From NCBI GenBank assembly GCA_035285865.1, contig JAYKHS010000027.1, forward strand, positions 1-64,000: DNA of 64,000 bases, given 5' to 3'. A program made the position numbers and the translations under genes. The number at the start of each line of letters is the position of its first letter. Position 1 is the stretch's first letter. Below the pieces are notes generated by a model. The model had not been told where the DNA came from, did no database searches, and was given only the letters and a program-made list of their open reading frames with translations. Shown in pieces: positions 938 through 14,842 of the stretch. The stretch is from Candidatus Sericytochromatia bacterium. GTDB lineage: Bacteria > Cyanobacteriota > Sericytochromatia > S15B-MN24 > VGJW01.

Positions 938-1011
938 CGCGCTCAGAGGGATTCGAACCCCCGACCTTCTGATTCGTAGTCAGACGCTCTATCCGGCTGA
1001 GCTATGAGCGC
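938..1011 (-). tRNA. tRNA-Arg (anticodon ACG), CCA not encoded
   Basis: Reverse complement GCGCTCATAGCTCAGCCGGATAGAGCGTCTGACTACGAATCAGAAGGTCGGGGGTTCGAATCCCTCTGAGCGCG folds as a cloverleaf with a GTTCGAA T-loop. Confidence 0.97.
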
Positions 1012-1160
1012 ATGCGCTGAAGGTCTGTCCATCATGCCGGACGCCGTGCCTGAGCGTCAAGCTTTGGCTCTTCGTGAAATTCCTGATCGGGGCGGAAGGT
1101 TGCTGTCTGCGGGTACGGACAATCTGAAGGCGATCAGGATTCGAAAGCGCACAGGTATCC

Positions 1161-2849
1161 ATGAACATCCAGGGTCCGAACGGAAATCGTAGTACCGGCC
1201 CCCTGAAGGGTACGGGACAGCTGCCACAGGGAAGCGCAGCTCCCGCCGCGGAAGACAGCTTCAAACTCCTGAAGAAGGACAGTCTCGTTCGCACGGGCCC
1301 GCTCTCACAGGAGACGCGAGCCAACGCCACCGACGCAAGCCCTGCGGAAATCGCTGCCGAGATCGACAAGATGCTGGGCGGACCGCCCGAGACTGGTTCT
1401 CGGTTCATCACGGCCCCAGGTGCCGCATGGTCGCTGCAGGAAGCCGTTGCGGTCCGCGATGCCCTTCGCATGGTGCCGGCCTCGGACCGTGCGGCCCTGC
1501 GCAACACCGTCTTCGAGAATTTCCCCGCTGGAACGGCCAACCTGAAAGAGGTCTTCGGTGACGCGAGTTTCTACTCCAACAACGTGAACGGAGTCACCCG
1601 CATCCGCATCTCGGACGCCGTTTCGAAACTGCCGGGCCGGGACACGCCCGATGACCTGAAATCCGTGGTCCTTCACGAAATCGGACACATCGTCCAGGGT
1701 CAGGGACGCTGGGACGCCAGCGAGATTCGCGAGTTCGGCAAGCTGTCCCAATGGACGCGCCCGGACGGCAAGATTGCCAACGGCTACGACAAGAACTTCA
1801 ACGCCATCGTGGCCGACGGGCAGGACAAACCGGTACGGACGGACAACTTCGTCTCCGATTACGCCAAGACAGCCCCTCATGAGGACTTTGCCGAGAGCTA
1901 CCGGGCTTACCTGAGCAACCCGGCTCAGTTGCTCTCCATGGCTCCGGAGAAATTCCTCTACATCAACGCCACGCGCAAGGCGTACTCCGTCGAGGACATG
2001 CTGCGCATGCAGGGTCCGGATGCCGACATGGCACGCGAACGCCTGGAGGCCACGCTGGATCAGTTGGCAGGGTCCAAGCTGAACCCGGAAACGCTTGCCG
2101 GCATTCGCGCCCAGTTCCCACCGGGCAGTCTCCCCAACACGGCGGGCATGGCCGGGGTCATTCGCAGCCTGCGGGAGATGGCCGGAAACCCGGACGCGCT
2201 CAAGGCCTTCGAGGCCAGTCCGGATGCGCTGGGCAACGCCCTGAAGGGCCTCTCTGCAGGCGAGATGAAAATCCTGGCGGATCCTGCGCTGCGCGCACAA
2301 CTGGTGGCTGACGTGAAGGGGGCGTCACTGGCACCCAAGGATTCGATCAATGCCAAGGACGTGGCCGCCCTTAAAGCCATGTTCAAATCCATCATCAATG
2401 ACAGCCCGAAGACAATCATGGGCGCCAGTTGGCTGCGGCAGAGCCCGAAGGCTCGCTTCGACTACATCAAGGGCAAGCTCATGAAGGCGCTGCCCAAACT
2501 CAGCCCAGAACTACAGGCCGTCATCAAGGCGGATCTGGCCAAGGGCACCAAGGGTGTCATCTTCGCCCTCGGCAACCACCCGACCTTCGTCCGGATGATG
2601 GAGGACATGTGGCCGAAACGGGCCTTGTTCGGACTCATCAAGTACAGCAACGGTGACCCGAAGATGGTCGCCCGCGCCAACAACGCCGTCGACAAGTGGG
2701 GCGAAGCCGAAATGCAGGCGTGGTCCGATCTGCTGGCCAAGGGTAATCCGAAAGCCATTGACGGCCAGATGAAGAACATCGACCTCATCCTTCGGAAAGA
2801 CAGCTTTGGTCCGATGAAGGCGGGGATGGAGGCCCAAGTCGCTGCCTGA
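1161..2849 (+). CDS. Zinc-dependent metallopeptidase-domain protein (HExxH...EDFAE) with a helical C-terminal region
   Basis: VVLHEIGHIV (HEIGH at 1674-1688) and downstream VSDYAKTAPHEDFAESY; low-complexity N-terminus with no signal peptide. Confidence 0.75.
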   Translation: MNIQGPNGNRSTGPLKGTGQLPQGSAAPAAEDSFKLLKKDSLVRTGPLSQETRANATDASPAEIAAEIDKMLGGPPETGSRFITAPGAAWSLQEAVAVRDALRMVPASDRAALRNTVFENFPAGTANLKEVFGDASFYSNNVNGVTRIRISDAVSKLPGRDTPDDLKSVVLHEIGHIVQGQGRWDASEIREFGKLSQWTRPDGKIANGYDKNFNAIVADGQDKPVRTDNFVSDYAKTAPHEDFAESYRAYLSNPAQLLSMAPEKFLYINATRKAYSVEDMLRMQGPDADMARERLEATLDQLAGSKLNPETLAGIRAQFPPGSLPNTAGMAGVIRSLREMAGNPDALKAFEASPDALGNALKGLSAGEMKILADPALRAQLVADVKGASLAPKDSINAKDVAALKAMFKSIINDSPKTIMGASWLRQSPKARFDYIKGKLMKALPKLSPELQAVIKADLAKGTKGVIFALGNHPTFVRMMEDMWPKRALFGLIKYSNGDPKMVARANNAVDKWGEAEMQAWSDLLAKGNPKAIDGQMKNIDLILRKDSFGPMKAGMEAQVAA

Positions 2850-2853
2850 ACCT

Positions 2854-3666
2854 ATGCCGCTCCACCCCTCGGTTGAACGGCTTGATCGGGCGCTCCTCCA
2901 GAAGTGGGCAATCGTGACCTCCTCCGGCGAATGGCCATACCATCGTCTGCCGGAGCGTCTCGCAGACATACTGGAACTGCCCGAGGCGATGCGTACCCTA
3001 CACGCCGCCATCTGGCGAGACATCTACCTCGCGGCCGACATCCTCGATGACTTTCAGGATGGCGATCTGAACGGTGAACCTGCGCAAAACATGGCTCCAC
3101 TGGTCAGCATCCTTTGCCTCTCTCGAGCCATGGCACTCGTTGGGCAGACAGTCGCGCCTACTGCAGTTCTTGATCTTGTCGCCAACACTTTGAGCGCTTT
3201 GGTTCAGGCTCAGGCTTGGGACCTCATGCCTGAGCAAGCATCAAAATTGACGCTGATGGCGAGCATCGAGAATCGCACCGGTGCCACCATGGGCGGCACG
3301 GTCGCCATGCTGGGTGTCTTGAGCGGACGGGAATATCCCTCGACCGAGACCCTAGGACGATGGGGGCACAACATAGGCGCTGCGCTTCAGTGGCGCAGCG
3401 ACCTCGATGCAGCCGCAGAAGCAGGCCCCACAAGCCATCGGTGGAAGTTGCTCGAGAAGAGCACGGCGGGCTTGGGTTTGGACCTGCCTGCACCCGCCGG
3501 GCTCGTACTCGCTGCGATCCGCTTGCGCATCCTCCAACTGCAGGCGAACGTTCTGTATGAGATGACTGGCAGCGAGCCCAGAGGCCTGCGCGAGGCCTTC
3601 GAAGAGGCATTTGACGTGGCACTGGACCTCAGGTTGGCCGAGCGACGTCTGAGCAGATTCGCGTGA
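2854..3666 (+). CDS. Class I isoprenoid synthase-fold protein, ComQ-like prenyltransferase
   Basis: First Asp-rich motif LAADILDDFQDGD; Q-x-x-D-L (AQAWDL); degenerate second motif IGAALQWRSDL. Confidence 0.65.
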   Translation: MPLHPSVERLDRALLQKWAIVTSSGEWPYHRLPERLADILELPEAMRTLHAAIWRDIYLAADILDDFQDGDLNGEPAQNMAPLVSILCLSRAMALVGQTVAPTAVLDLVANTLSALVQAQAWDLMPEQASKLTLMASIENRTGATMGGTVAMLGVLSGREYPSTETLGRWGHNIGAALQWRSDLDAAAEAGPTSHRWKLLEKSTAGLGLDLPAPAGLVLAAIRLRILQLQANVLYEMTGSEPRGLREAFEEAFDVALDLRLAERRLSRFA

Positions 3667-6053
3667 ATCAGCGTCACCTCACAGTTGGCCATCTGCTGCT
3701 GCAAGCCGTCGCACTCGTCGTGACACTCTGGACAACGACAGACTGGGTAGGCCAAACCTTCCACGGCTTTCGCGTCGATCGTGCGCTCTTTGTCTCCAGC
3801 TTCAACCAGGACAACTGGGAAGGCCCCAAGGCCGGCATCCAACCCGAAGACCAGATTCTAGCCTTGGATGGCATAACCTTGACCAGCTACCACCAGTTCG
3901 AGGCCCTGGTCCGCAAGAAGGAACCCAGAGACCAGATCACGCTCAGCATCGGTCGCCAAGGGGCCACCCAGTCCCTTGACCTTCGTCTCCAGACATTCTC
4001 GTGGGCCGATTGGCGCAGCAGCACGCTGCCAGCCTTGTTCCTCTGGGCCCTGCTTGTCGGCATGGCAACCGTGACCCACATCAGGGCACCGGCGAATGCA
4101 ACTGCCGGAATTCCCATGCTCGCCTTTCAGGGCGGATTGGCACTCTATCTGCTCACGGGAGTTGAGTTCGATCTCGGCGGTCGATTGGGGCCCTTGGTCT
4201 ATCTGGCATTCCAAGCTGTTTCATGGGCCGCATTGAGCCTTGCGGTTACATTTCCTACCCCGACAATCGCCCCGGGGCGCTCCCCACTCCCGCTGCGCCT
4301 TATGGTGGGCATGGCTGCCGGCACGCTTGGCGTGGTGACGGTCATCGCCTTGCACCGGGCAACGCAAAGGCCTGCTGACCATCAACTCTATACTTTGGTG
4401 GTCTGGCAAGGCACCGTGGCACTGGCCTTCCTCGCCACCCTCTCCCTGCTCGTCAGCCTCACGCTGCGTGCCTGGCGCACCCGCAACCTGCTGCATCGCC
4501 GTCAGGCCCAGATCACGCTTGTCGGCGCCCTGATTGCCTTCCTGCCGTGGACGCTGGTCTGGGCGATCCGTGACCCTGCGCTCCAGACCCTGGCCTATAG
4601 CGCAACCTTGCTGTGCTTCACCGCATTCCCCGCATCGATTGCCTATGCCATCGTTCGGGCACGCCTGTTCGACATCGAAGTGGTCCTTCGCCGGACCCTG
4701 CAGTACGTCCTGACCCTGCTCATCCTGGGCACCGGTTACGTCGGCAGCATGGCGCTGCTGACTTCGGGAGCCGGCAGTGCCCTTGGCCTCGGGGACAGCC
4801 CCACGGCAGCATCTGCGGCCACGGCCCTGCTGGCCTTGGCCTTCCAGCCCCTCTCGCGACGCATCCGCGAGCGGATCGACCGGGTCTTCGATCGGTCGGC
4901 CTACAAGCCCCAGCAGGTCCTGGGCACTTTCGGGCTGCAGACCCGGCAGGCCGCCACAGCAGAGGCTCTCTTCCACGCCCTTCAAGGAGCTCTGGATGCC
5001 TCGGTGCGGCCGACCTTCGTCAGCCTGTCGATGCCGGGCCATGGCAACTGGCAGTCAGGCCATCCCGAGACCGCCCTGACCTCCCCTCTGCTCCATGGTC
5101 AGGAGAGCTTCGGTGTCGTCACCCTGGGACCTCGGCAGTCCGGCCTGGAATACGGCACGGCAGACGAGGCCTTCCTTCAGAATCTGGTCAACCAGTTGGC
5201 CCTCGCCGCCGAAAACGTGCTGCTGGTGGAACGCGTCAAGGCCCAGGAGCGCGTGACCCAAGAGCTGGAGATCGCGCACCAGTTGCAGGAATCCCTCTTG
5301 CCGGACCGGCTGCCGAGCCTGCCTGGCGCGGATGTGGCCGTCTGGCACGAAGCGGCACTGGAGATGGGCGGCGATTTCCACGACGTGCTCGAACTGCCGG
5401 GCGGCAAACTGGGCCTACTGGTCGGGGATGTCTCCGGCAAGGGCCTGCCGGCAGCCATGCTGGGCGCCGTGACCTTGACGCTGTTCCGAGCCGTCGCCAG
5501 TCATCACCCCGACGATCCGGCAGAGGTCGTCCGCGCCGTCAATCGCTTGCTGCGTCGTCAACAGGGCCACCGATCGAGGATGTTCGTGGCCTTCACCTAC
5601 ATGATCCACGACCCGGCGTCTGGCCGGCTGATCGGCGTGAACGCCGGCAACCCCCAGCCACTGCACAATGGCGTGCCCATACCGGCCACGGGTCTTCCGC
5701 TGGGCGCCCCGATCGAACCGCATTACAAGCCGTTCGTGATCGATCTTCGGCCTGGAGACGAACTTGTGGCGCTCTCGGACGGCATCACGGACGCTCGGGA
5801 CCCCAATGGCCAGCGCCTTGGCGAAGAACGCGTCGCCCGGTGGCTGCAGACCCGGGACCGACAGGATGCGCGGGATACGCTGCAGCACCTGAGGTCGGCC
5901 CAGTTGACCCACCAGCGCCAGATGGGCCTGTATGACGACACCACCATCCTCGTCCTGCACCAGGGTGCCAGCACACCGCCTGTTCATCCTCACCGGCCCG
6001 AGACCGCTCCGCAGCGCCAGGCCTTCGGGGTGTTCCACCGACCCGGGGGCTGA
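3663..6053 (+). CDS. Membrane sensor: PDZ + multiple TM helices + GAF-like domain + PP2C/SpoIIE phosphatase
   Basis: PDZ signature KAGIQPEDQILALDG; hydrophobic segments; PP2C motifs GGDFHD, VGDVSGKG, SDGITD, DDTT; GTG start overlaps the upstream stop. Confidence 0.88.
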   Translation: MNQRHLTVGHLLLQAVALVVTLWTTTDWVGQTFHGFRVDRALFVSSFNQDNWEGPKAGIQPEDQILALDGITLTSYHQFEALVRKKEPRDQITLSIGRQGATQSLDLRLQTFSWADWRSSTLPALFLWALLVGMATVTHIRAPANATAGIPMLAFQGGLALYLLTGVEFDLGGRLGPLVYLAFQAVSWAALSLAVTFPTPTIAPGRSPLPLRLMVGMAAGTLGVVTVIALHRATQRPADHQLYTLVVWQGTVALAFLATLSLLVSLTLRAWRTRNLLHRRQAQITLVGALIAFLPWTLVWAIRDPALQTLAYSATLLCFTAFPASIAYAIVRARLFDIEVVLRRTLQYVLTLLILGTGYVGSMALLTSGAGSALGLGDSPTAASAATALLALAFQPLSRRIRERIDRVFDRSAYKPQQVLGTFGLQTRQAATAEALFHALQGALDASVRPTFVSLSMPGHGNWQSGHPETALTSPLLHGQESFGVVTLGPRQSGLEYGTADEAFLQNLVNQLALAAENVLLVERVKAQERVTQELEIAHQLQESLLPDRLPSLPGADVAVWHEAALEMGGDFHDVLELPGGKLGLLVGDVSGKGLPAAMLGAVTLTLFRAVASHHPDDPAEVVRAVNRLLRRQQGHRSRMFVAFTYMIHDPASGRLIGVNAGNPQPLHNGVPIPATGLPLGAPIEPHYKPFVIDLRPGDELVALSDGITDARDPNGQRLGEERVARWLQTRDRQDARDTLQHLRSAQLTHQRQMGLYDDTTILVLHQGASTPPVHPHRPETAPQRQAFGVFHRPGG

Positions 6054-6133
6054 GCGCTCCAAGGCCCCTGCGACCAGTCGCCATCGGCCATGCAGCCGAT
6101 GAGTCCGGCGTTCCGGGAGGGTAGTCATGGCGC

Positions 6134-7042
6134 ATGCCACTCACCCCCATGCTGCGTGTCGCCCACCTGTCCGACCTCCATTTCGCGCTCGTGCCCAGAG
6201 CGGGCTGGCCGGAAGGTCCGGACCTCCTGCGTCGCACGATCCAGGCCCTGAACCGCCTCGACCTGGATGCCGTCCTGATGACGGGCGACATTTTCGACCA
6301 GCCAGACCACGACAACGAGACGCTGTCCGCATTCCGTCGCGAGCTGCGCCCGCTGCGCCATCCCTGGTTCGCCGCCTTCGGCAACCACGACGTGGAGGGC
6401 CCGAGGGCGGACCTTGCCCGTCGCAGGCTGATTGACGCCCTCGGGGACAACGGCCTGTCCCATTCGGGCGCCCCTTGGTACTCCGTCCCCCTGCCCCACG
6501 GTCATCGCCTGGTCGTCCTCGACACCACCGACTCGGGCGAGGAGGGCTACCACGGCTGGCAAGGGCGCATGGGGCGCACTCAGGCACAGTGGCTACGACG
6601 CACCCTCCAGCGCCACGAAGACGAGCACATCGTCGTGGCCATGCATCACCCACCGTTCCCGGCCCTGCCCTTCACTCGGGCCCTGCGCTTTGCCGAGAGG
6701 GACGCACGGCGCGTGACCCGCGCCCTTGGGACAGCGGGGGAACATGTTCTTGGAACCCTCTGCGGGCATTACCATCACGCCGCCAGTGCCACCCTTGGCA
6801 ACGTGGCCATCCACGCCACACAGGCGCTCATCGAACACCCGCATCGTTTCCGCGTGCTGACATGGCATCCTGGCGGCTGCCGCTTGGAGTGGCACCTGCC
6901 CGTGGGCGGCTGGGCAACAGCGTGCTGCCCGCCCCGCCACCGTGTTCGCGGACGCATCATCCAGAGCCTGAGTGCCGTGGCCTCGCGTCAGCGCTTGGGC
7001 GGCCCCTCAATGACAAGGCCTGTCGTTATGCGTCGATGGTAG
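6134..7042 (+). CDS. Metallophosphoesterase (calcineurin-like, CpdA-like)
   Basis: HLSDLH, TGD, GNHD, MHHPP and GHYH motifs. Confidence 0.85.
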   Translation: MPLTPMLRVAHLSDLHFALVPRAGWPEGPDLLRRTIQALNRLDLDAVLMTGDIFDQPDHDNETLSAFRRELRPLRHPWFAAFGNHDVEGPRADLARRRLIDALGDNGLSHSGAPWYSVPLPHGHRLVVLDTTDSGEEGYHGWQGRMGRTQAQWLRRTLQRHEDEHIVVAMHHPPFPALPFTRALRFAERDARRVTRALGTAGEHVLGTLCGHYHHAASATLGNVAIHATQALIEHPHRFRVLTWHPGGCRLEWHLPVGGWATACCPPRHRVRGRIIQSLSAVASRQRLGGPSMTRPVVMRRW

Positions 7043-13270: not shown

Positions 13271-14842
13271 TCAGCGCACCAGGGGTTCGCGCTCAGCCGG
13301 ATCGGTCCACCGCATGAAACCGGCAAGGCCGGGATCCGCCCCCGCCACGGCCACGCCCAGCGCATGAGAAACCGCACGATAGGCGTCGTGGCCCTTCAAG
13401 CCCGTCCGCAACTGGACCACATACTGGGCCTGGGCCCAGTCCATCCGGAACAGCGTCCGGGTGCGCTGGGCGAAGGGCAGGGCGTAAACACCCATGCCGG
13501 GCGCGCGGCGCTCGATGGCGCGCGCCTCCTCGGCTGCCCGACCGGCAGCCTTGCGGATCCGGCCGATGTTCTCGGGGTCGGCGACGTGCACCGGCACGCA
13601 GGCTCCGGCGTCGAGGTCCGGGGGTGGCACCAGATGCTCCCCGCGTCGATGGCGATGCATGTCGCGGAAACTGCCCCAATCCAGCGTCAGTTCGGCAACG
13701 TAGCGCTGCCCCACGCGCAGTTCGCGGGGCCAATCGTCATGGTTGCCACGATCGGCCAGGAGCTCGGCGAGCAGTTCCTTGCGGCGGCCAGCCCCGAGTC
13801 CTCTGGCCCAGGCAAGGACCTGGCGGTAGGAGCGACCGGGCACGGCCGCGTAGACGAGAGAGGCAAGGGCCTCTTCGTCGGCCTCGTGAGGCGGCAGCAA
13901 GTCAACCTCACCGGCAGCGCCCGCCGCCACGGCGAGACCGTTCTCACGCCAAGCCGCCGCATCGCCGGCATGTCCCTGCGGGACGGCAGGAGCCGCGCAC
14001 GCGTCGAGCGCCCGATCAAGGGTGGTGCATTCGGCCTGTCCCAACGTCGCGGCGCGCGCACGCACACCGGCAGCCCAGGCGTGCGGGTGTGCATGACGGG
14101 CCAACGTAGGCGCCAGGGGCTGCGTGCCGGCAGCCTCGCCCGTCAATCGCGCCCAGGTGTCGTCCGGGGCCTCCCGGCATGCCTTGGCCAAGGCCTCGGC
14201 CAGCTGTCGGCACTCAAGCAGGGTGCTGGCCGCGAGTCGACCGATCAGGCGCTCGAGGGTGCGGACGCTCAAGACCAGCCCCACCCCAGTCGAGGCGGCC
14301 ACAGGCAGCAGGTAGCGGGCGACATCGAAAGCCCGGGCCGCGAGGTTGCGCCCGTAAACATCGGGGGCCATGCCCTCCGGGCGGGGATGCTGGCGCTCAA
14401 GCGCGACACGCTCGGCCTCGAAGACCTCAAGGTAGGCGGCACGCAGACGCTCCCCGGCCGCGCGGACGGCTTCGCGAACCTCGGGGTCCTCAGCCGGGCA
14501 GACCAGCGGAACCCGGCTGAAGTCCTGATAGCGGGTCGATCGGGCCTGCGCGTCAATCAGGCCGTCATGCAGCACTTCGGCGGCCGCAAGGTCCGAAAGG
14601 CCTTCGAGGCAGATGGCCAGATGCCCTAGGTCCGCGATGGAGGCGTGGCCGTAATCGAAGTAGAACTTCTCCCAGAACCGCTCGGCCGAGTGCGCATGCA
14701 CCCACGTCAACGAGGCCTCGATGGGATCGGCCGACCTGCTGTATCGCGCCAAAGCATAGGCCTGCCGCTCCGGCGGAAGCGGTGGCAGAACGACGACGCG
14801 CCCCCCCTGGATCAGGGCAGGCGCGTCGACGGGACCCGACAT
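13271..14842 (-). CDS. thyX: FAD-dependent thymidylate synthase (double-length ThyX type)
   Basis: LARYSRS, FYFDYGHASIADL, STRYQDF, FDVARYLLP and C-terminal FRDMHRHR motifs. Confidence 0.8.
   Translation of the reverse strand: MSGPVDAPALIQGGRVVVLPPLPPERQAYALARYSRSADPIEASLTWVHAHSAERFWEKFYFDYGHASIADLGHLAICLEGLSDLAAAEVLHDGLIDAQARSTRYQDFSRVPLVCPAEDPEVREAVRAAGERLRAAYLEVFEAERVALERQHPRPEGMAPDVYGRNLAARAFDVARYLLPVAASTGVGLVLSVRTLERLIGRLAASTLLECRQLAEALAKACREAPDDTWARLTGEAAGTQPLAPTLARHAHPHAWAAGVRARAATLGQAECTTLDRALDACAAPAVPQGHAGDAAAWRENGLAVAAGAAGEVDLLPPHEADEEALASLVYAAVPGRSYRQVLAWARGLGAGRRKELLAELLADRGNHDDWPRELRVGQRYVAELTLDWGSFRDMHRHRRGEHLVPPPDLDAGACVPVHVADPENIGRIRKAAGRAAEEARAIERRAPGMGVYALPFAQRTRTLFRMDWAQAQYVVQLRTGLKGHDAYRAVSHALGVAVAGADPGLAGFMRWTDPAEREPLVR

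Follow-up and report, generated by a model that had tools for sequence, protein, structure and literature searches.

Does a three-gene locus of Candidatus Sericytochromatia, which resembles the ComQXP operon but carries a metalloprotease where a small ComX would be expected and a PP2C phosphatase in place of a histidine kinase, encode a lipidated-peptide signal together with its receptor, and if so, what is the precursor? We addressed this question in a 64,000-nucleotide (nt) stretch of contig JAYKHS010000027.1 (assembly GCA_035285865.1, positions 1 to 64,000 of the forward strand; hereafter the window), which belongs to G000, a genome that is 83% complete (G labels denote genomes, L labels loci, X labels sequencing runs, and f and g labels families and genera). 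The locus consists of three open reading frames (ORFs):

1161-2849, + strand: P1, an ORF of 562 amino acids (aa)
2854-3666, + strand: PT, an ORF of 270 aa, the prenyltransferase-fold enzyme
3663-6053, + strand: the sensor, an ORF of 796 aa

Our preferred reading, to which we assign a probability of roughly one half, is that PT lipidates the Trp-free C-terminal tail of P1 to give an allele-specific ligand, and that the PP2C domain of the sensor signals by partner switching.

Conservation of the locus

The three genes are tightly coupled, as a preliminary description of this DNA, made from the sequence alone, had stated: P1 and PT are separated by 4 nt (2850-2853), PT and the sensor overlap by GTGA (3663-3666), and all lie on the + strand. 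The motifs quoted in that description were also borne out, namely LAADILDDFQDGD and QWRSD in PT and HExxH (HEIGH) in P1. The class, with its 47 genomes, was searched with a profile built from 13 PTs, and gene neighbourhoods were then inspected around the best matches. Of the order's 27 genomes, 22 carry P1-PT-sensor as a contiguous series, a count that takes in G130 (sensor with an internal stop), G061 (sensor running off the contig) and G001 (split into two alleles). Because this gene order is conserved in 22/27 genomes, the arrangement is not due to chance, and the adjacency of the genes in other genomes, on which the preliminary description had staked its proposal, was found across the order. 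Close PT homologues carry the name Ca. Sericytochromatia, the lineage of the host itself.

Other layouts exist. G100 and G088 held only a variant in which PT is followed by a long P1-like protein and a short transmembrane (TM)/GAF/PP2C protein, a variant also present in G037 and G133, and no P1 match was obtained in the three genomes of genus g8 (81-99% complete). In four genomes a P1-like gene directly precedes the sensor with no PT between them, and three of the four carry an unlinked PT of the same clade. The 20 genomes of the class outside the order gave one weak P1 match, and at two loci there (L084, L093) PT and the sensor adjoin without P1. A GTDB scan with one motif, which reached only Sericytochromatia-type and Bacillota records and is no census, returned 11 Bacillota loci outside the lineage, nine with a comQ-(X)-P-A layout and two without an adjacent comX; two peptides tested from these loci match Pfam ComX. 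Literature searches, with subscription papers mostly outside their coverage, found no description of the triad.

PT as a non-elongating, prenyltransferase-fold enzyme

PT matched Pfam polyprenyl_synt (E 2e-7), and its model (mean predicted local distance difference test, pLDDT, 85.7) adopted an isoprenoid-synthase fold (best Z 20.4, root-mean-square deviation 3.0 Å over 250 residues). The top fold matches were isoprenyl diphosphate synthases (IPPS), from which Foldseek and VIA-align cannot separate PT; Ord1 was matched at Z 16.3, and no ComQ-family structure was among the matches listed. The Pfam and fold matches would suit an ordinary chain-elongating polyprenyl diphosphate synthase with an incidental neighbourhood, a reading that we regard as very improbable, given that the window PT has neither RRG, GKxxR nor a second motif of the DDxxD type, is placed outside the IPPS clade (support 97, second quick tree), shares synteny and allele swapping with the sensor, and coexists with two ordinary IPPS genes elsewhere in G000. 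RRG/GKxxR occurred in 0/23 triad PTs, whereas RRG with a DDxxD second motif occurred in 20/20 ordinary IPPS. The motifs of PT are the following:

3037-3066, + strand: D62-D71, the intact first Asp-rich motif (FARM)
3388-3402, + strand: Q179-x-x-S182-D183 (QWRSD), the degenerate second Asp-rich motif (pseudo-SARM)

Residues D65, D66, D69, Q179 and D183 are invariant in all 23 triad PTs, and the KT-motif Lys, replaced by R141 in the window, is kept in 18. The position of the ComQ Asn (StheQ N215; StheQ equivalences were derived from motif spacing), which is Asn in 7/7 ComQs, is occupied by Ser in 17 triad PTs, by Asn in four and by Thr in two.

The PT profile aligned with ComQs by HHalign at 99.7%, and the window PT scored 72 bits on a profile of other triad PTs, 43 on one of ComQ and 25 on one of IPPS. 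In two quick trees, the second built without 48 of the 101 rows, which were long branches or near-duplicates, ComQ and IPPS separated from the other triad PTs and from one another, the ComQ clade having a support of 98-100, and the window's genus formed a long unplaced branch (2.3-2.6 changes per site); an approximately unbiased (AU) test of its placement inside the triad clade gave a borderline p of 0.046, affected by the long branch. Since the trees keep these three groups apart and leave the window's genus unplaced, despite the 99.7% alignment, PT is assigned on its sequence to the non-elongating class of trans-isoprenyl diphosphate synthase (trans-IDS)-like enzymes and not to ComQ proper. 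Of the ComQ-like enzyme that the preliminary description had proposed, the non-elongating, ComQ-like character thus stood, as did the alignment with ComQ without grouping among chain-elongating synthases, and the membership of the ComQ clade did not, on the two quick trees. Nor is a ComQ-like enzyme outside Firmicutes new, StheQ having already been published.

We also considered that PT might be a pseudogene, which was ruled out by its open frames and by nonsynonymous divergence (dN) far below synonymous divergence (dS). Because dN was 0.25-0.44 against a dS of 1.3-4.1 (rough values, with dS near saturation), PT is under purifying selection, with raised dS and old alleles. The spacing from its likely ribosome-binding site (RBS), GGAGG (2828-2832), is 9 nt to an in-frame CTG (2842) and 21 nt to the ATG (2854), and the gene may start at this CTG instead of the ATG; in G082 and G001b the PT frame likewise reaches back across the P1 stop.

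P1 as the likely precursor

In P1 a low-complexity N-terminus is followed by a zincin domain, a helical C-terminal half with NHLP-type folds and a variable tail:

1428-1985, + strand: zincin (Peptidase_Mx) domain, residues ~90-275
2115-2327, + strand: first NHLP/Os1348-type leader-like fold, residues ~319-389, the predicted PT docking surface
2436-2510, + strand: residues ~426-450, which align with a second NHLP-type repeat in homologues and have diverged in the window's genus
2808-2849, + strand: allele-specific C-terminal tail, codons 550-562, Trp-free and ending in MEAQVAA, the candidate signal core

The N-terminus (residues ~1-88) contains three TG[PQ]L repeats and no visible hydrophobic signal peptide, and we take it to resemble type III substrates; TG[PQR]L was too weak as a general export motif (21/1865 N-termini vs 10/1765 internal stretches). 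The next domain matched Pfam Peptidase_Mx just over the cut-off (E 2e-6) and holds both an HExxH motif (HEIGH, residues 172-176, nt 1674-1688) and a downstream Glu in EDFAE (HEDFAE, residues 240-245, nt 1878-1895). HE.G is invariant in the 23 homologues compared and the second His is present in at least 90% of them, so that P1 is a zincin by its motifs, with a predicted protease activity.

The C-terminal half is where a precursor may lie. NF038399, of the NHLP clan, matched 16 of 24 P1 C-terminal halves (E down to 2.8e-12, with the listed scores under the family cut-off), and among the 24 homologues TIGR04509 matched 11 and TIGR03793 matched 7 (E up to 0.1, listed scores below cut-off). The NF038399 and TIGR03793 matches of the homologues map onto residues 332-359 of the window's P1, and NHLP matches also map onto residues 426-450. 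A profile built without the window's genus found the C-terminal half of the window's P1 at E 2e-22, which links it to homologues bearing the NHLP-type leader that also characterizes PalPXQ. A fold search of P1, in which the NHLP part was not folded separately, gave nothing at E 0.001 or better, its best rows being ATLF-like zincins, and in the P1 model the last six residues had a pLDDT below 50.

P1 is probably the precursor, and of the earlier view of a metalloprotease in place of ComX, the zincin domain held, while the protein as a whole makes better sense as a fusion of a zincin with the precursor. As to a conventional ComX, ComX (PF05952) was not found in G000, in a search that also stayed below the cut-off in its controls; there is no room for a small ComX gene between PT and the sensor; and none of 14 Trp-ending small ORFs in 1000-6300 is common to three other alleles. 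The C-terminal half of P1 was tried as a ComX-like sequence and set aside, as it matched a four-sequence ComX profile at a probability of 0.8%.

Predicted docking of P1 on PT

The complex model of PT with P1 residues 272-562 scored 0.76, compared with 0.24 for the best control, and the mark used was reached by 116/157 solved and 2/215 mismatched pairs, counts that are only rough for models with their own alignments and Mg. The runs agreed in at least 61% of contacts, with a partner pLDDT of 71-72. The modelled interface places P1 residues 319-341 and 365-389, within the NHLP fold, on PT residues 132-139 and 204-235, and its PT residues G216, A220, R223 and L224 are invariant in five close PT homologues. 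It lies on the PT helices flanking L134, the position equivalent to A167 of StheQ, and mutation of A167 abolishes the binding of StheX, according to the available part of bioRxiv 10.64898/2026.08.29.745113. The model supports a predicted binding of P1 to PT through the first NHLP-type fold.

An allele cassette spans the tail, PT and the sensor input

The tail, PT and the input of the sensor vary together, in the following feature:

2810-4421, no strand assigned: hypervariable allele cassette, covering the last ~13 codons of P1, all of PT and sensor residues 1-253 (PDZ and TM1-5)

Within species, the flanks of the cassette are 97-100% identical and its interior ~60%, and its GC content (0.605-0.613, and 0.68-0.70 at third codon positions, GC3) differs from that of the flanking genes (0.62-0.68 and 0.79-0.86). 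In G001, two contigs whose ends overlap exactly for 94 and 119 nt are 57-70% identical in between, the divergence beginning at window-equivalent position 2810 (codon 550) and stopping near 4423. L165 joins a P1 99.4% identical to that of one G001 contig with the cassette of the other, and because it unites the two in this way, the G001 copies are alleles; a tandem duplication was ruled out, as L165 joins a full P1 to allele B in one copy, though L165 is possibly not independent of G001. Between G001a and L165, P1 is 100% identical to codon 549, PT 58%, the PDZ domain 66%, TM1-5 66% and the later TM segments 100%, and the PT of allele G001a is closer to that of G007 (66%) than to its conspecific allele (58%).

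Sequencing run X4, of the window's own species, matched both flanks at 97-99%, left 2928-4373 uncovered and showed loose ends at 2830 and 4421, the first of which reads ESRIVG-stop in the P1 frame in place of EAQVAA-stop; X4 stems from another study than the possible source run, and X5 and X6 were too patchy and were left out. In run X2, the listed cassette pieces had a depth of 9-32 compared with ~50 on the flanks, two of them differing by 10-11% and one being nearly identical. The cassette is thus a pherotype-like pattern, behind which functional pherotypes may stand, and a within-species polymorphic block of enzyme, peptide end and receptor N-terminus is what PMC4008528, in its available part, describes for ComQXP.

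None of 39 P1 tails ends in Trp and three have a Trp within the last 12 residues; with no shared small Trp-ending ORF either, the ComX-like Trp acceptor implied by the preliminary description had to be given up. Gly, Pro and Ala make up 47% of tail residues, the last residues are mostly G (10), M (8), A (7), L (4), I (3) and F (3), and Asp, the commonest side chain tested, occurs in 22/39 tails. Because no side chain is universal in the tails, the acceptor is probably not Trp. A more canonical alternative is that PT prenylates an internal Trp of P1 (W184, W198, W424, W484, W513 or W521) and that proteolysis frees a ComX-like peptide. All known enzymes of the class use Trp (PMC13290415, as far as its available text goes), W198 is nearly invariant, 21/24 homologues have a Trp within the first NHLP fold, and 4/23 PTs keep the ComQ Asn. 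We nevertheless find this route improbable: these Trp residues of the window's P1 all lie outside the cassette, Leu361 stands in the window where the NHLP fold of homologues has its Trp, W484 is shared by 9/24, and many homologues are Trp-free in their last 60 residues, including a group whose PT keeps the Asn.

Tail and cassette also co-vary between genomes, in pairs that are few and related. The eight f4 tails, separated from PT by 9-42 nt, hold YQGGG[DE]PP constant and vary most in the last two residues. Among f4 congeners with P1 zincins 84-91% identical, the same-tail pair G106/G109 shares 89% in PDZ, 91% in TM and 70% in PT, compared with 47-59% in PT and 50-62% in PDZ for six different-tail pairs; four such comparisons gave 50-52% in TM and 47-52% in PT. 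In G010 and G061, PT and PDZ are both 63% identical between the triads, whose tails differ, compared with 91-97% for the PT-less pair, whose tails are the same, and 95% for the unlinked PTs.

These patterns may also be read without a lipidated tail: PT would make a small isoprenoid signal that differs between alleles (an Ord1-like prenyl-indole, for instance) and that the sensor detects, P1 would serve as a scaffold, activator or carrier, and the tail would only hitchhike. We judge this unlikely, though it accounts for several observations: PT varies far more than the tail needs in G000 and G007, the tail overlaps the PT translation start, PT and the sensor occur without P1 in the other order, and 23/23 PTs keep the Gln that precedes the second motif and is associated with indole binding in the part of PMC13290415 available. 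On the other hand, the f4 tail stands apart from PT and yet varies mainly in its last two residues, P1 directly precedes the sensor even without PT, and NHLP folds serve as precursor leaders in PalX.

The sensor couples a ComP-type input to a PP2C output

The sensor is built as the preliminary description had it, with TM1, a PDZ domain (~40-112), TM2-10 (121-397), a short GAF-like part (459-518) and a PP2C/SpoIIE domain (579-766). PDZ_2 (E 6e-7) passed its Pfam cut-off, SpoIIE (PF07228) matched at E 2e-36 and GAF_3 (E 5.5e-4) fell below the cut-off. There are 10 hydrophobic segments, with the PDZ domain between the first and the second, and an 11th peak lies inside the PP2C domain; among the matches listed, the GAF-like part is shorter than in f3 and f4 homologues. 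The input aligned with that of ComP over 342 columns (97.8%, E 1.2e-12), upholding the homology that had been suspected, and ComP is likewise modelled with a PDZ domain after the first of about ten TM segments (PMC9620489, available part). The module is a general one, being joined in 45 longer proteins to outputs of the kinase, GGDEF, cyclase, Ser/Thr kinase or PP2C type.

The four metal-binding Asp motifs of the PP2C domain are intact in 18/18 homologues, in agreement with the proposed phosphatase output in place of a histidine kinase, and no cognate response regulator adjoins the sensor, the next gene encoding a metallophosphoesterase. In the Rsb partner-switch mechanism, a PP2C of the RsbU/SpoIIE type dephosphorylates a STAS anti-anti-sigma protein. 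G000 has genes for three STAS and two RsbW-like proteins, all of them outside the triad locus, so the earlier suggestion of partner switching stood as to output and components, with a STAS protein as the putative target of this PP2C.

Proposed mechanism and points against it

PT, as a non-elongating enzyme whose fold and motifs are evident, would ionise a prenyl diphosphate at its intact FARM, and would bind P1 through the first NHLP-type leader fold, as PalQ binds PalX. It would then move the prenyl group to the short, flexible, Gly/Pro/Ala-rich tail, the weakest step of the scheme, for which the candidate acceptors would be the groups common to all tails, namely the terminal carboxylate or a backbone amide. 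The modified tail would be exported either after being cleaved off, possibly by the P1 zincin, or on whole P1 via a flagellar-type apparatus, and would bind the allele-matched PDZ and TM1-5 input with which it co-varies. The PP2C domain would in turn dephosphorylate a STAS anti-anti-sigma protein and so shift an RsbW-type switch, the components of which are in the genome.

As to export, G000 has a FlhA-containing flagellar/chemotaxis cluster (C26:109500-121500; L187, L188) and a reduced second FlhA cluster (C22:94000-118000; L189, L190) with FliK-like, FlgF/G/H/I/J/B/C, sigma factor, FliE and FliF genes. An RsbW-like gene lies 8 kb from the reduced cluster, which is possibly a dedicated export system; use of either cluster by P1 would be a guess. 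In its fullest form, which we put forward only tentatively, the locus would be a kin-specific system in which a ComQ-like enzyme docks on a RiPP (peptide made on the ribosome and post-translationally modified)-leader fold within a metalloprotease and lipidates its Trp-free C-terminus, to be read by a ComP-type input that feeds a PP2C. The metalloprotease would then possibly be self-processing and type III-exported, and the tail a prenyl ester or N-prenyl amide.

A number of observations weigh against lipidation of the tail by PT. All characterised trans-IDS-like peptide prenyltransferases act on Trp, as stated in the available part of PMC13290415, and the acceptor on P1 proposed here is putative. 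No confident tail contact with the active site is listed for the complex model, the docked NHLP fold lies ~160 residues from the tail, and the docking pass may echo a likeness to PalQ-PalX and StheQ-StheX. No NCBIfam NHLP model matches P1 of the window directly. G000 and G007 have tails with a single residue of difference but 55% identity in PT and 65% in PDZ; G037 and G133 have a common tail but a PDZ identity of 43%; family f3 shows a cassette that scarcely exceeds PP2C in variability; and since the tail overlaps the PT RBS and start in the window's genus, it may hitchhike. The sensor orthologue lacks a neighbouring P1 in the class's other order, and both the export signal and the PP2C target of the scheme are putative. 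Finally, the window's genus carries K141R, Ser at the StheQ N215 position and Ala (A186) at the StheQ D219 position, and StheQ requires N215, D216 and D219, mutants at the positions substituted in the window losing 83-98% of activity (bioRxiv 10.64898/2026.08.29.745113, available part).

These substitutions (K141R, S182 and A186), together with the long branch of the genus, suit a different role: PT would act, at any rate in this genus, as an adaptor or chaperone that catalyses little or nothing, and the unmodified C-terminus of exported P1 would be an ordinary PDZ ligand; the module would then perform protein-based kin recognition or monitor secretion. PDZ domains prefer C-termini, and their ligands often end in hydrophobic residues. 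The P1 tails mostly end in Gly or hydrophobic residues, as PDZ ligands often do, and PT-less P1-sensor pairs exist, although unlinked PTs could serve the latter. We consider this role quite unlikely, for FARM, Q179 and D183 are invariant in 23/23 PTs and the KT Lys is kept in 18/23, and five TM helices fall within the receptor's variable part, which suits a lipidated ligand.

Comparison with known systems

The triad would work like ComQXPA and PalPXQ and is a member of neither, failing on Trp, the pseudo-SARM Asn, a small precursor and a kinase. The comparisons that follow rest on the available parts of the sources cited. PalP-PalX-PalQ of Paenibacillus alvei (PMC10853753) is alike in its trans-IDS-like prenyltransferase, in the adjacent membrane sensor, in modification at the C-terminal end, which is the proposed site here, and in PalX, the substrate of PalQ, being an NHLP-type precursor; PalX binds its enzyme, as the model predicts for P1. 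It differs in that PalX is small and ends in Trp and PalP is a histidine kinase, whereas the triad has NHLP folds in a 560-700 aa zincin fusion, a Trp-free tail (0/39 end in Trp) and a PP2C output. ComQXPA of Bacillus and Paenibacillus (PMC4008528, PMC9620489; comparison loci L111-L125) shares the enzyme with FARM and pseudo-SARM, the TM1-PDZ-9TM input and the polymorphic enzyme, peptide end and receptor N-terminus. An intact FARM without RRG or GKxxR and a ComP-type input are thus present here, while Q-x-x-N-D is replaced by QWRSD, with Ser for the pseudo-SARM Asn; the triad also differs in having no small ComX, no Trp, its precursor gene first, no kinase or response regulator, a diderm host and a PT outside the ComQ clade.

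In Sphaerobacter thermophilus, StheQ/StheX (bioRxiv 10.64898/2026.08.29.745113) includes a ComQ-like enzyme outside Firmicutes, with one Mg site at FARM, and P1's predicted docking site surrounds the position equivalent to StheQ A167. StheX, however, is 69 aa long with Trp second from its end, and StheQ needs N215 and D219, where the window has Ser and Ala. The P domain of ChrPC and Ord1 (PMC13290415) are likewise non-elongating, all-helical prenyltransferases with a conserved Gln before the second motif, but act on internal Trp or on free Trp/indole, and the available part of that source describes no link to a PP2C receptor. RsbU/SpoIIE-type PP2Cs share the catalytic domain and motifs, and STAS and RsbW-type proteins are in the genome; the sensor differs from them in being fused to a ComP-type PDZ/TM input and co-encoded with precursor and maturase. 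The enzyme of PMC12715784 was set aside as ABBA-type, on the available part of that paper.

Related loci and neighbouring genes

A sister locus (G000:C3:82810-87167; L194-L196, L198, L200) encodes a 73-82 aa NHLP-type peptide with a Gly-rich end in Cys (for example AGWGIGC), together with a hydantoinase-like gene and a radical SAM/SPASM enzyme, and these converge on a PDZ/TM-GAF-PP2C receptor from the sensor's own family. Upstream in L195 there is an M50 peptidase gene, and the sister locus as such has a weak syntenic counterpart in G000. This sister locus supports a general precursor/maturase/receptor logic.

In G025 (L027/L102/L167, C4), three tandem full-length P1 genes with differing tails precede a single PT and sensor, a split fourth copy lies ~5 kb upstream, and there are further stand-alone copies (L149, L169). 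The paralogous layout of family f3 (L024:6679-12240, L032:6562-12888, L066, L078, L164) consists of PT, a P1-like protein of 980-1230 aa and a short TM-GAF-PP2C protein without PDZ; the long P1-like proteins have several NHLP-type repeats, with no HExxH evident in the two inspected, and four tails end in GG-hydrophobic motifs such as RGGLLRFL. In family f5 (L151-L158) the closest sensor homologue is conserved without an adjoining P1, often with a Na+/H+ antiporter gene upstream, and PT lies ~20-25 kb off or on another contig.

PT domains with a QxxSD/TD-type second motif also form the N-terminus of 650-675 aa proteins (L033:6137-9846, L095:4349-7873, L098:7081-10729, L099:1437-3674, L083:6561-8519), whose C-terminal domain, without a Pfam match, is possibly a terpene cyclase as in ChrPC. 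Four of these genes are preceded by Trp-free, Pro-tailed ORFs of 40-44 aa, and a histidine kinase follows in L033 and L098. A related PT with a QIMTD second motif lies among Nif11-like and other short leader-peptide ORFs in L035:6111-8094 (G209, a cyanobacterial genome of the phylum).

Upstream of the locus, the window holds an IS3-type transposase fragment at the contig edge (1-720) and, just before P1, a tRNA-Arg(ACG) at 937-1011 on the minus strand; relatives of the window's genus have other genes there. Downstream, 80 nt past the sensor and on the same strand, lies a calcineurin-like metallophosphoesterase gene (6134-7042), which is also found 3' of the triad in G007, G082, G010 and G025, and is split into two ORFs in L019. 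Further on (13271-14842), a 523-aa protein with a Thy1 (ThyX-like) domain in its N-terminal half is encoded between an HD-domain gene and secA. A promoter and terminator scan of the locus stayed at chance level, and an ESM Atlas search gave no usable match.

Implications

If the preferred reading is true, lipidation of the P1 tail would provide the first non-Trp acceptor for trans-IDS-like peptide prenyltransferases, pherotype-style lipid-peptide signalling would reach a diderm, uncultured sister group of Cyanobacteria, and the ComP input module would be able to drive partner switching. RiPP precursors may also be hidden inside 600-residue proteins, where small-ORF mining misses them. Alleles with 100% identical precursor bodies but another enzyme, tail and receptor are natural material for swaps, which bear on how ComP-type PDZ/TM inputs recognize their ligands.

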